Notes: generated by a model from the sequence alone, not told the origin. Shown: positions 13,972 to 39,034, numbered from the stretch's first letter. The stretch: 64,000 nt of DNA from an uncultured Bacteroidota bacterium (GCA_903861145.1 CAIOTH010000106.1:8442-72441); one strand, 5' to 3'. Program-made: numbers and translations.

Positions 13972-14085
13972 TTTTACCGCAAAGGGCGCTAAGACCGCAA
14001 AGGTGAAATACAAAAGGTAAAACCGGGTAAATAAGGAGTTTAAAACTTAGTGTTTCTTAGTGAACTTAGTGCCTTAGTGGTTAAT
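13972..14085. repeat. Empty pair of inverted arms made of ~9-nt units, same family as the GxxExxY flanks
   Basis: ACCGCAAAG GGCGCTAAG ACCGCAAAG (13976-14002) faces four CTTAGTG-containing units (14046-14081). Confidence 0.75.
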
Positions 14086-36812: not shown

Positions 36813-37742
36813 ATGTTTTTGCTTATGATTAACCAACAGCAGTTTCCCGAAATTGAAAACCTTGAGCTACTTGCAAAGCAGGTGGTTGAAGGGTTTATCA
36901 TTGGCCTTCACAAATCACCTTTCCACGGCTTTTCGGTGGAGTTTGCCGAGCACCGCTTGTATAACCCCGGTGAGACAACCCGCCACCTGGACTGGAAGGT
37001 TTTTGCCCGTACCGGCAAAATGTTTGTTAAGCGTTTTGAAGAGGAAACCAATTTGCGTTGCCAGATAGTGATTGATGCCTCATCATCAATGTATTTTCCG
37101 AATGACGCGAAGGCTAAAATGAATAAGCTTCGCTTTTCAATACTTTCGGCCGCAGCCTTAATTAACCTATTGAAACGCCAGCGTGATGCAGCCGGGCTAA
37201 GTGTTTTTACCGATGAGGTAATTGTAAACACCGATGCTAAAAGCAGCACAAAGCATCATCAATTGCTCTTTGCGCAGCTCGAGACACTTTTAAAGCAGTC
37301 ACCACTAAATGTAAAAACATCCGCAGCCAAGTGCCTGCACCAAATAGCAGAAACGGTGCATAAGCGAAGCATGATTATCATCTTCAGCGATATGTTTGAT
37401 AACCTGGATGGTGCCGGTGCTGATGAGCTTTTTGCTGCTCTTCAGCATTTAAAATATAATAAGCACGAGGTTATTTTGTTTCATGTGGTTGACAAGCAAA
37501 AGGAGCTTGAATTCAATTTCGAAAATCGCCCATACCAGTTTGTGGATATGGAAACCGGCGAAAAGGTAAAACTGCACTCCAACCAGGTAAAAGAATACTA
37601 CGTAGAGAAAATGCAGGCCTTTGAAAAGAACCTCAAACTGCGTTGCGGCCAGTTCAAAATAGATTTTGTAGAGGCCGATATTAATCTTGACTTCAGGCAA
37701 GTTCTGCTACCGTTTTTAATGAAACGGACTAAGATGACATAA
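36813..37742 (+). CDS. DUF58 (vWA-like, MoxR-associated) protein
   Basis: GLHKSPFHGFSVEFAEHRLY, DWKVFART, IDASSSM, IIFSD. Confidence 0.9.
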   Translation: MFLLMINQQQFPEIENLELLAKQVVEGFIIGLHKSPFHGFSVEFAEHRLYNPGETTRHLDWKVFARTGKMFVKRFEEETNLRCQIVIDASSSMYFPNDAKAKMNKLRFSILSAAALINLLKRQRDAAGLSVFTDEVIVNTDAKSSTKHHQLLFAQLETLLKQSPLNVKTSAAKCLHQIAETVHKRSMIIIFSDMFDNLDGAGADELFAALQHLKYNKHEVILFHVVDKQKELEFNFENRPYQFVDMETGEKVKLHSNQVKEYYVEKMQAFEKNLKLRCGQFKIDFVEADINLDFRQVLLPFLMKRTKMT

Positions 37743-37753
37743 ATGCAATTTTA

Positions 37754-38244
37754 AATTTACCGCAAAGCGCGCGGAGAACGCTAAGTTTTATAAGGAATAA
37801 ATTAAGAGCTATGACGGAGAATGAACTGGCTACTTTAATTGTTGACGCTGCTTTGAGCGTTCATCGAGAGTTGGGGCCGGGTTTGTTTGAGTCAACCTAC
37901 GAAGCTTGTATGGTTTATGAGTTAAAAAGTAAGGGAGTTGACGTAGAAGTGCAAAATGAACTTCCGATTATATATAAGGGAGCAAAACTCGAAACTGCCT
38001 ATAGAATTGACTTGTTAGTGGGCGGCAAGGTAATTGTAGAACTAAAAAGTGTCAGCGAAATAAGCGACCAACATATGGCTCAAATTATTACTTACCTGCG
38101 GCACTCGCAGGTTAAATTAGGATTCCTCATAAACTTTAATGTAAAATTGATTAAAAACGGGATTAAAAGAGTTGCTAACGGCGTTTAATTTCTTTTATAA
38201 ACGCATTTAAATCTTTGCGTTCTTAGCGAGCTTTGCGGTAAATT
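37754..38244. mobile_element. Putative GxxExxY cassette bounded by 32-bp imperfect inverted repeats
   Basis: Left arm 37754-37785 matches the reverse complement of 38213-38244 at 28 of 32 positions. Mobility is inferred, not shown. Confidence 0.6.
37811..38188 (+). CDS. GxxExxY protein (PD-(D/E)XK nuclease-like)
   Basis: LGPGLFESTYE, YRIDLLV...IVELKSV, AQIITYL, GFLINFN. Confidence 0.93.
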   Translation: MTENELATLIVDAALSVHRELGPGLFESTYEACMVYELKSKGVDVEVQNELPIIYKGAKLETAYRIDLLVGGKVIVELKSVSEISDQHMAQIITYLRHSQVKLGFLINFNVKLIKNGIKRVANGV

Positions 38245-38251
38245 GAAATAA

Positions 38252-39034
38252 ATGGATTTGAATTTTAAAGAATTTGGCACCGGTTTCCCAATCATCATTT
38301 TGCATGGTTTATTGGGCTCGCTTGATAACTGGCAAACTATAGCTAAGCGATTGGCTGAACTGCCTGCAGCACATTTTAAAGCTTATATTATTGACCAGCG
38401 TAATCATGGTAAATCGCCGCACAGCGATGAGTTTAGCTATGATTTGTTGGCGGGTGATATTCTTGATTTTTTCGAACAACATAACATTAGCAACGCGCAC
38501 ATTATTGGCCACTCTATGGGTGGAAAGGCCGCTATGAAGTTTGCGCTTGAGCACGGCAATAGGGTTGAAAAATTGATTGTAGTTGATATTTCCCCATCGG
38601 TTGCCGAGGATCATCATACCTATATTTTTGAAGCACTGAAATCTGCTAATGTTGCCAACGTTAGCAGGAGAGAAGATGTCGAGGCCGTGCTAAAGCAAAA
38701 GCTAGGCGATGACAAAACAACTATCCAATTTTTAATGAAGGGGTTGCAACGCGATGGGGCTGAAAAGAACCTTGAATGGAAATTTAACCTCGAGGCTCTT
38801 TGGAATCATTATGAAGAAATTAGGGATGGCATTACCGCTGCAAAGCCATTTACCGGGCCAACATTATTTATTAAAGGCTCAAAATCCGATTATATCAATG
38901 CCGGTAATTATCCGGAGATAGCTGAGTTGTTTCCGAACAATGAAATTGTGGAAATTGCCGGTGCCGGTCATTGGGTGCAGGCAGAAAAGCCCGATGAATT
39001 TTTAGGCGCAGCAATGAGCTTTTTGCTTGAATAA
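38252..39034 (+). CDS. Alpha/beta hydrolase (YbfF-like esterase)
   Basis: LHGLLGSLDNW, DQRNHGKS, GHSMGGK, AGHWVQAE. Confidence 0.9.
   Translation: MDLNFKEFGTGFPIIILHGLLGSLDNWQTIAKRLAELPAAHFKAYIIDQRNHGKSPHSDEFSYDLLAGDILDFFEQHNISNAHIIGHSMGGKAAMKFALEHGNRVEKLIVVDISPSVAEDHHTYIFEALKSANVANVSRREDVEAVLKQKLGDDKTTIQFLMKGLQRDGAEKNLEWKFNLEALWNHYEEIRDGITAAKPFTGPTLFIKGSKSDYINAGNYPEIAELFPNNEIVEIAGAGHWVQAEKPDEFLGAAMSFLLE

Follow-up and report, generated by a model that had tools for sequence, protein, structure and literature searches.

The window, by which we mean the whole stretch of 64,000 nucleotides (nt) analyzed here, is part of contig C106 of an uncultured Bacteroidota genome labelled G000 (the C106 coordinate minus 8441 gives the window coordinate), and it holds, at 37750-38248, a unit of 499 bp in which a gene of the GxxExxY family lies between two inverted arms. 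This unit, called the cassette below, sits between a DUF58 gene upstream and an alpha/beta-fold (alpha/beta-hydrolase) esterase gene downstream, both recognized by family-model scans. A repeat search delimited the arms as a 41-nt inverted repeat (37750-37790 and 38208-38248), which is 85% complementary and leaves 417 nt between the arms. At 37754-37785, the left arm reads AATTT-ACCGCAAAG-CGCGCGGAG-AACGCTAAG, and the reverse complement of 38213-38244 reads AATTT-ACCGCAAAG-CTCGCTAAG-AACGCAAAG; by hand count, these 32-nt stretches are identical at 28/32 positions, the mismatches falling at positions 16, 20, 21, and 29. An earlier reading of this stretch from its sequence (the original prediction) had described the 28/32 match and three 9-nt units in each arm, and our recount agrees with it, the repeat being extended here to 41 nt.

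All parts of the cassette are read on the + strand. The left arm (37750-37790) has at 37759-37785 its three 9-nt units, ACCGCAAAG, CGCGCGGAG, and AACGCTAAG, each with a heptamer of the CRCNRAG type, and the spacer from this arm to the start codon (37791-37810) is poorly conserved relative to G017, a genome of the same genus that has a fourth unit and a longer spacer. The GxxExxY (PDDEXK_3) gene, which encodes 125 amino acids, occupies 37811-38188 and is followed by a second spacer, from the stop codon to the right arm (38189-38207, from reading of the sequence). The right arm (38208-38248) is the reverse complement of the left one, with the units CTTTGCGTT, CTTAGCGAG, and CTTTGCGGT. The stop codon of DUF58 is at 37740-37742, and the ATG of the esterase gene, at 38252, is 3 nt beyond the end of the extended right arm; with the narrower arm limits of the original prediction, these coordinates bear out its placement of the unit 11 nt past the DUF58 stop and 7 nt before the esterase ATG. 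The inverted repeat around the gene exceeds chance: its score, defined throughout as that of the best inverted repeat between the two flanks of a gene, is 53, against a maximum of 25 in a null made of shifted pseudo-genes in the same loci (105 shifted pseudo-genes, genus loci). The arms belong to no Rfam family, the region 37500-38500 giving one chance-level match only. A scan for sigma-70 promoters and intrinsic terminators found no + strand site inside the cassette, Bacteroidota-type promoters being outside its coverage, and to that extent the unit lacks a promoter or terminator of its own, as had been claimed.

The open reading frame (ORF) at 37811-38188 matches TIGR04256 (GxxExxY; E = 1.3e-42, 144.8 bits, cut-off 35) and PF13366 (PDDEXK_3; E = 5.7e-42, 143.2 bits, cut-off 22), the latter being its sole Pfam match. 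In an alignment of 34 genus proteins, G24, E27, Y30, D67, E77, and Q91 are invariant and K79 and Y95 nearly so, and the motif set of the RecB family is present (E27, D67, E77-x-K79, and Q91-x3-Y95, that is, QxxxY). An AlphaFold model based on the 34-sequence alignment, with a predicted local distance difference test score (pLDDT) of 96.1, was used in place of the single-sequence model, which was unusable (pLDDT 39.9). Its best Foldseek match in the PDB was the Cas4 protein SSO0001 (E = 1.1e-3; query template-modeling score, TMq, 0.58-0.60), further matches being lambda exonuclease, the Cas4 protein Pcal_0546, AddAB, Dna2, and Hjc; the top entries 4ic1, 6m9k, and 4r5q had a Foldseek probability of 0.99-1.00 at E of about 1e-3. 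The GxxExxY protein thus models as a minimal RecB/Cas4-like PD-(D/E)XK nuclease with its catalytic residues intact. It is not Cas4 proper, because its one cysteine among 125 residues allows no 4-Cys iron-sulfur cluster. A sequence search of the PDB with the protein gave no match at E up to 1, PADLOC gave one weak local match only (E = 6.5e-4 over 38 residues), and PHROGs gave none. The prediction of a two-copy complex, with a score of 0.00, speaks neither for nor against a homodimer. In the part of a 2012 superfamily survey that treats it, the PDDEXK_3 family is entered with the function "Unknown" and with "multiple transfers" (PMC3424549).

Filled and empty junctions and selection on gene and arms

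The DUF58-esterase junction was compared among 41 genomes, 25 of which are in the same genus. The stretch from DUF58 to the esterase gene was matched end to end in G017 only, and G024 matches DUF58 and the GxxExxY gene as far as a contig end. Eight genomes have a DUF58 match that ends at the stop codon and an esterase match that begins within the next 10-153 nt. Empty junctions were read in G008, G014, G016, G019, and G022, with 6-45 nt from stop to start and no arm-like sequence, and those of G007, G011, and G020 are empty by coordinates; something else comes after DUF58 at twelve other loci. The site is therefore not one at which the gene is conserved in all relatives, eight species of the genus being empty, and where the gene is absent the arms are absent too, as would be expected if gene and arms form one unit, which is what had been claimed. 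By this comparison, arms and gene are shown to have been inserted as one unit into the very short DUF58-esterase spacer. Chance flanking of the gene by a common repeat was considered and rejected, since the empty alleles lack both arms. Six other sites (C47, two in C145, two in C127, and C41) are filled in relatives and are clean short spacers in G000, the C47 site being filled in nine genomes. The spacers that took up inserts are very short, and inserts often begin at the upstream stop codon itself or no more than a few nt away; the relatives are too diverged (about 75% nt identity) for an exact target sequence to be defined.

The identity of DUF58 to the G000 copy is 93-94% in the filled G017 and G024 and 78-86% in the remaining genomes. 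Because the filled genomes are mutual closest relatives by this measure, a single insertion in their common ancestor is the simplest history. The GxxExxY protein of G017 is 87% identical to that of the window, and that of G024, where the arm units differ, is 68% identical, so the copy in G024 may have been replaced or may have arrived independently. The window copy is old, with one insertion in the ancestor of the three species, or a replacement in one of them, and there is no sign of its recent movement.

Compared with the G017 ortholog, the GxxExxY gene has a proportion of nonsynonymous differences (pN) of 0.088 and of synonymous differences (pS) of 0.884, the synonymous sites being saturated, and the corresponding values for DUF58 are 0.050 and 0.736. 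The 32-nt arms are identical at 30/32 positions on the left and 29/32 on the right (59/64 together), and the spacers are barely alignable. Where the arms differ, the change either affects the fourth heptamer position, which is degenerate, or disrupts a unit in just one of the two arms, and none is compensatory. These comparisons show gene and arms both to be under purifying selection. The window copy has been kept intact since its insertion, which fits a semi-domesticated state such as that of the REP-associated tyrosine transposases (RAYTs; REP, repetitive extragenic palindrome).

Four lake-water metagenome DNA runs from one study contain the window stretch, two of these runs possibly being its source, and no RNA run with the stretch was listed. 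The GxxExxY gene is also present in another strain in run X3, which is diverged by about 10%, and the contigs of this run stop at 37753 and resume at 37802, with the summed depth roughly doubled over the arms (37752-37822 and 38178-38248). The arms behave as assembly-breaking repeats.

Arms across the family and gene-less repeats

The window copy is not the only GxxExxY gene with arms. G000 holds eight such genes, and 8/8 are flanked by inverted arms no more than about 100 nt away from the ORF, composed of CGCAAAG/CACAAAG units in five copies, of ATGATT-type units in two, and of a full hairpin on each side in one, so that other members of the family do share the architecture on which the original prediction was built. 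Across 36 genus loci, the median inverted-repeat score was 31, against a median of 16 (maximum 25) for shifted pseudo-genes and of 17 for mismatched flank pairs, and 25/36 loci were above the null maximum; 14/17 further loci from G017, G021, G024, and G043 were above the same maximum of 25, which brings the genus total to 39/53. A wide set comprised 79 related loci, 77 of them with enough flank for scoring, and had a median of 37 against a null median of 16 and maximum of 31, with 47/77 above the maximum and 60/77 above the 95th percentile of the null. According to the record titles, the wide set comes from Bacteroidota, Acidobacteriota, Verrucomicrobiota, Planctomycetota, Desulfobacterota, Cyanobacteria, Chloroflexota, several classes of Pseudomonadota, Gemmatimonadota, and candidate phyla.

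The arms are inverted heptamer arrays of three to four units, and the units of the wide set are variants of one heptamer, CRCNRAG, the commonest being CGCAAAG (42), CACAGAG (38), and CACGAAG (20). Unit starts in this set are spaced by 8 nt (62 times), 9 nt (28 times), or 10-11 nt (8 times). Read along the coding strand, the upstream arm shows the purine-rich strand of its units in 30/47 strong loci and the other strand in 9, some of these 9 reversed-strand loci being "hairpin - gene - hairpin" layouts. The cassette is on the strand of its upstream neighbour in 33/37 loci and on that of its downstream neighbour in 28/35, counts made from crude ORF calls in which independence is overstated because several loci are orthologous. 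That the unit rides on a host transcript, as had been suggested for the window copy, fits this co-orientation with the upstream gene and the lack of a sigma-70-type promoter or terminator.

Heptamer units are also abundant apart from the gene. In G000, 217 clusters of at least two units were found, against 22 in a reversed-sequence control, and merging left 207 arrays. Convergent pairs of arrays with loops of 7-114 nt, which we call gene-less hairpins, number 39, and three further pairs lie 409-427 nt apart, all three being GxxExxY cassettes. Unpaired arrays number 121; a decayed partner lies on the inner side of 15 of them and on the outer side of 0, and about 100 are true solo arms, lacking any partner up to 160 nt away. 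As many as 178/207 arrays are intergenic, intergenic DNA being 12.5% by crude ORF calls, and the median distance from the outer array end to the neighbouring ORF is 31 nt. The arms start with (T)TTACC, GCC, or TCAC, followed by CRCNRAG units. The loops of the hairpins are not conserved among gene-less copies, and the solo arms are oriented without preference with respect to the genes beside them (30/28/18/16). Target-site duplication is absent, the flanking direct repeat being 0 nt in 19, 1 nt in 14, and 2 nt in 3 of 36 hairpins and cassettes. Elsewhere in G000, four gene-less sequences are related to the arms of the window cassette itself (77-91% identical over 31-57 nt), and a gene-less relative in the same window, at 13978-14079 (G000:C106:22419-22520, no strand assigned), consists of convergent CGCAAAG-type and CACTAAG-type arrays, 43 nt apart and intergenic. 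On this point the original prediction needs correction, for the arms are not a private package of this gene: hairpins without a gene and solo arms, both dispersed, make up the families to which they belong.

A role of the arms as promoters was considered and dropped, because no exact TAnnTTTG, which we take to be the Bacteroidota -7 motif, was seen by eye in the spacer or arms and because solo arms have no fixed orientation to genes. The inner side of some solo arms continues into a shared stretch …CGAATAACGAA…GAATAATGAAGTAA… (G000:C103:6140-6200 and G000:C7:14662-14720), which suggests mosaic repeats of several modules.

Within the genus, the number of TIGR04256 matches per genome ranges from 0 to 10, with at least one in 34/40 genomes and none in 6/40. 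Arrays of the AAG type number 88 in G000, 97 in G024, 53 in G021, and 48 in G017; each of the six genomes that lack a GxxExxY match has 0-5. Arrays of the CAGAT type number 0 in G000 and G017, 1 in G024, 66 in G043, and 51 in G021, and one GxxExxY gene of G043 is flanked by exactly CACAGATTCACAGAT arrays, the type expanded in that genome. Different species of the genus are thus shown to have expanded different arm types.

The same spacers are reused by different elements. At the site of the G000 cassette in C3, G024 has a gene-less hairpin of the AACCAAG type and G017 a degenerate arm-like remnant, and at the C33a site G047 and G013 are empty and G017 and G024 have the AACCAAG-type hairpin. 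Units of AACCAAG/AACCAGG define a further family of gene-less hairpins (L161 in G017:C39, L162 in G024:C42, and L156 in G024:C221), which occupy spacers that in G000 hold GxxExxY cassettes of another arm type. The C127 site in G024 (L167, G024:C317:62620-63540) has a 144-aa IS200/RAYT-like ORF among REP-like GC-rich palindromes, and directly after this RAYT-like region is a solo right arm, TTCTTAGTGCCTTTGTGGCAA, of the type of the G000 C127 cassette; two kinds of nuclease-plus-repeat element meet in this spacer.

A cassette of the CAGAT type is retained at one site in nine species (L029-L036 and L039; orthologous to G000:C47:48853-49050). Its right arm abuts or overlaps the start of a downstream lipoprotein-like gene, and the longest downstream frame crosses the arm. 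Another GxxExxY copy of G000 (L004, G000:C33:97738-98088), which lies 1.8 kb from a neighbouring copy (C33:99529) and has an in-frame TAA at the eighth codon when codons are numbered from the start that this neighbour uses, may be a pseudogene or have a later start.

A proposed mechanism and its alternatives

Judging from the arms, the gene, and their dispersed relatives, we lean, with a little more confidence than doubt, toward the reading that the cassette is a selfish element of the REP/RAYT kind with a different enzyme fold, in which the part played by the nuclease on the arms is our inference. The heptamer arrays would be the recognition sites of the nuclease, which would cut at or near the arms, perhaps when these are single-stranded or extruded as a hairpin, and host replication or repair would then complete the movement of any segment bounded by arms. 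Copies lacking the gene would be non-autonomous derivatives that are mobilized in trans, in the way that RAYTs mobilize REPINs (hairpins formed by paired REPs), and the gene would be expressed by read-through from the host operon. A wider proposal, which we hold more tentatively and regard as possible without expecting it, is that GxxExxY cassettes are a class of their own among autonomous prokaryotic mobile elements, whose sole protein would be a minimal RecB/Cas4-like nuclease recognizing heptamer arrays, and that, in more than 10 bacterial phyla, a large part of the short intergenic repeats, both hairpins and heptamer arrays, goes back to their gene-less derivatives. A published description of a unit of gene plus arms was not found in the open literature, subscription journals and supplements being outside the search, and mentions of GxxExxY in literature text beyond PMC3424549 were incidental only.

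The arms can be read as sites recognized by sequence or as the two halves of an RNA stem. Among 747 paired arm positions in 25 cassettes, 111 are mismatched, 27 of these being compatible with a G.U pair on the sense strand, 23 on the antisense strand, and 61 on neither, so there is no sense-strand wobble signature in these cassettes. This null, the uncompensated changes in the arms, and the conservation of the heptamer across phyla together argue for recognition of sequence rather than selection on pairing only, and they point to an arm sequence that is recognized, most simply by the encoded protein.

The same data bear on an RNA-level element of the type of the 23S rRNA intervening sequence (IVS), in which the stem in a read-through transcript would be cut by RNase III, releasing or insulating the GxxExxY message and making the insert tolerated in operons, with DNA spread by another route; we consider this unlikely. 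It draws on the predicted RNA fold of 37740-38260, where the arms are the closing stem in both the minimum free energy and the centroid structure (z = -4.39, 0/100 shuffles folding as well), on the location of cassettes between co-directional genes, mostly on the strand of the upstream one, on the predominance of the purine-rich unit strand upstream, and on the four-helix-bundle gene of G000 (TIGR02436), which is also inside an inverted repeat. Against it are the lack of a sense-strand G.U excess and the fact that the heptamer is conserved across phyla and orthologous arms change uncompensated, neither of which a stem selected for pairing only would need; moreover, solo arms cannot pair and are randomly oriented to genes, and the spread of the units is left unexplained. 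The pairing of the arms in mRNA, which the original prediction had offered as one way in which the unit might act, is therefore retained as a predicted fold, and the marks specific to RNA (G.U bias and compensatory changes) were not found.

Several points weigh against the REP/RAYT-like reading. Nuclease and arms are linked by correlation, which common descent of each cassette could also produce, and 14/53 genus loci and 30/77 wide loci are not above the null maximum. The PD-(D/E)XK enzymes hydrolyse DNA and are not, to our knowledge, able to rejoin it, and with this hydrolase chemistry the integration step has no candidate enzyme. The matches that define the fold are weak by E-value (best 1.1e-3), yet mutually consistent. 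About 100 solo arms are not directly explained by a hairpin-based mechanism. A burst does not follow from the gene by itself, since the arrays number only 1-4 in several genomes that possess a CAGAT-type gene. The contigs of the four metagenome runs have no joint skipping the cassette and no indel, although contigs drop rare variants and thus speak for presence only. The designation of the window unit as a mobile cassette accordingly stands for its insertion as a unit, whereas this copy is old and vertically inherited, with saturated synonymous sites relative to G017, and no absence allele was seen in the four runs. Finally, the window copy and the CAGAT-type copy of nine species are long-lived at fixed sites under purifying selection, which also fits a host-useful gene.

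Such a host-useful or regulatory system, in which the nuclease would have a cellular role (repair, recombination, or defence), the arrays would be operators or binding sites for it or for another protein, and the look of a cassette would come from the accumulation of repeats, is in our opinion improbable. The gene was kept by purifying selection at a fixed locus over saturating synonymous divergence, one copy is common to nine species at one site, and, in the available text of their description, intergenic TAACTGA heptamer repeats of Beggiatoaceae, Cyanobacteria, and Bacteroidetes are read as possibly regulatory (PMC4679880). However, the copy number varies from 0 to 10 in one genus, with 6/40 genomes lacking a match, and the arm boundaries of filled and empty alleles are exact. 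The chance of two-sided, correctly oriented flanking is small given 207 arrays, yet 8/8 genes are flanked; no match to a defence or phage family was obtained beyond the one weak local match, and solo arms have no fixed orientation to genes.

Homing, by which the nuclease would cut gene-less hairpins of its own arm type and the gene would be copied into the loop by break repair on arm homology, making the hairpins targets rather than derivatives, has the gene in the loop position of a gene-less hairpin, shared arm families, loops that vary among gene-less copies, and the existence of PD-(D/E)XK homing endonucleases (I-Ssp6803I) in its favor, but it is the least probable of the three, as arms are entirely missing from the empty alleles of the DUF58-esterase junction and of six other sites, which means that arms and gene arrived together, the two sites with a gene-less hairpin in relatives have the AACCAAG type, unlike the G000 cassette, and arms of 30-40 nt are short for recombinational repair. 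These three alternatives are not all mutually exclusive.

If, as the REP/RAYT-like reading has it, the nuclease mobilises the arms, a function would be given to a large, multi-phylum, and often multicopy family, it would be clear where one class of intergenic repeats comes from, and the known mobile elements would be joined by a type that has no transposase of a known kind. A small nuclease programmed by sequence, with a heptamer code that differs between clades, would also be a possible tool. For annotation, the arms account for the frequent extension of frames near GxxExxY genes into peptides encoded by the repeats and for the breaks of assemblies at these sites.

Comparison with known systems

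The IS200/IS605 elements and the miniature inverted-repeat transposable elements (MITEs) are similar to the cassettes in being small, with one gene and gene-less derivatives; IS200/IS605 elements also make no target-site duplication, and MITEs have terminal inverted repeats. Unlike these elements, the cassette has no Y1 or DDE transposase. Target duplications are normal for MITEs, whereas none was found in 36 cassette or hairpin elements, and IS200/IS605 elements have subterminal hairpins in place of the terminal inverted arrays of the cassette.

The nucleases of the Cas4/RecB group (SSO0001, lambda exonuclease, AddB, and Dna2 domains) are the best structural matches of the GxxExxY protein and share the motifs E, D, ExK, and QxxxY. 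The GxxExxY protein is, however, about half their size (125 aa) with one cysteine, and it has no CRISPR/cas or helicase partner nearby, its neighbours being DUF58 and the esterase.

The 23S rRNA IVS, with an S23p/four-helix-bundle ORF and excision by RNase III, is likewise a small ORF in inverted repeats able to form a long RNA stem, with its site of insertion within a transcribed unit, and one report treats it as a selfish element (PMC4990558). The cassette differs in lying between protein-coding genes and not in helix 25/45 of the rRNA, in its ORF family, and in the conservation of its arm sequence, not of pairing alone, its stem being known from a predicted fold. The single TIGR02436 gene of G000 (L075, G000:C23:24214-24670) is in a 22-nt inverted repeat, 20/22 complementary with a loop of 413 nt, whose arm, GTAATTAGTATTAAGTATTTAG, is unrelated.

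Arrays of the TAACTGA heptamer share with the units described here the 7-base word, the mostly intergenic location near gene ends, and a patchy phylogenetic distribution; in the text available for them, no mechanism of spread is evident, the repeats are head-to-tail with period 7 and another word, and no nuclease gene or inverted architecture is reported, "nuclease" occurring 0 times (PMC4679880).

The closest parallel is given by the REP/REPIN and RAYT (TnpA_REP) systems, or REPtrons, of Proteobacteria, for which we used the features of RAYTs as given in the available portions of two reports (PMC3116915; PMC5581495). In both systems, a small nuclease-type gene is located between inverted copies of a palindromic repeat, the repeat is dispersed without the gene at high copy in intergenic DNA with lineage-specific expansions, there is no target duplication, and the gene copies are vertically kept under purifying selection. 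The enzyme of the cassette is, in contrast, PD-(D/E)XK RecB/Cas4-like and not an HUH Y1 (IS200-like) transposase, and its arms are heptamer arrays at 8-9-nt spacing and not a single palindrome tagged with GTAG or CGTC. One of these tetranucleotides is conserved at one end of REPs (PMC3733652), and none was noticed on the cassette arms, by inspection without a formal scan. The cassettes also differ in having several gene copies per genome (8 in G000) and many solo arms.

A RAYT-like gene with REP-like palindromes exists separately in G000 (C69) and in G024, the former, at G000:C69:13141-13945, being a 195-aa IS200/RAYT-like ORF in 50-nt arms (49/50). A 114-aa ORF at G000:C80:656-1078, with the look of a GIY-YIG nuclease, is in 41-nt arms (40/41); the families of both ORFs were named by eye from the translation. 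At G000:C95:12987-13705, a 131-aa ORF with no family named is in two nested inverted repeats of the ATGATT type, the type that flanks the GxxExxY copies of C116 and C117.

What is new in the GxxExxY cassettes is a REPtron-like system of nuclease plus repeat with another enzyme and another repeat grammar, and the chance that it forms a mobile-element class of its own is a fair one.

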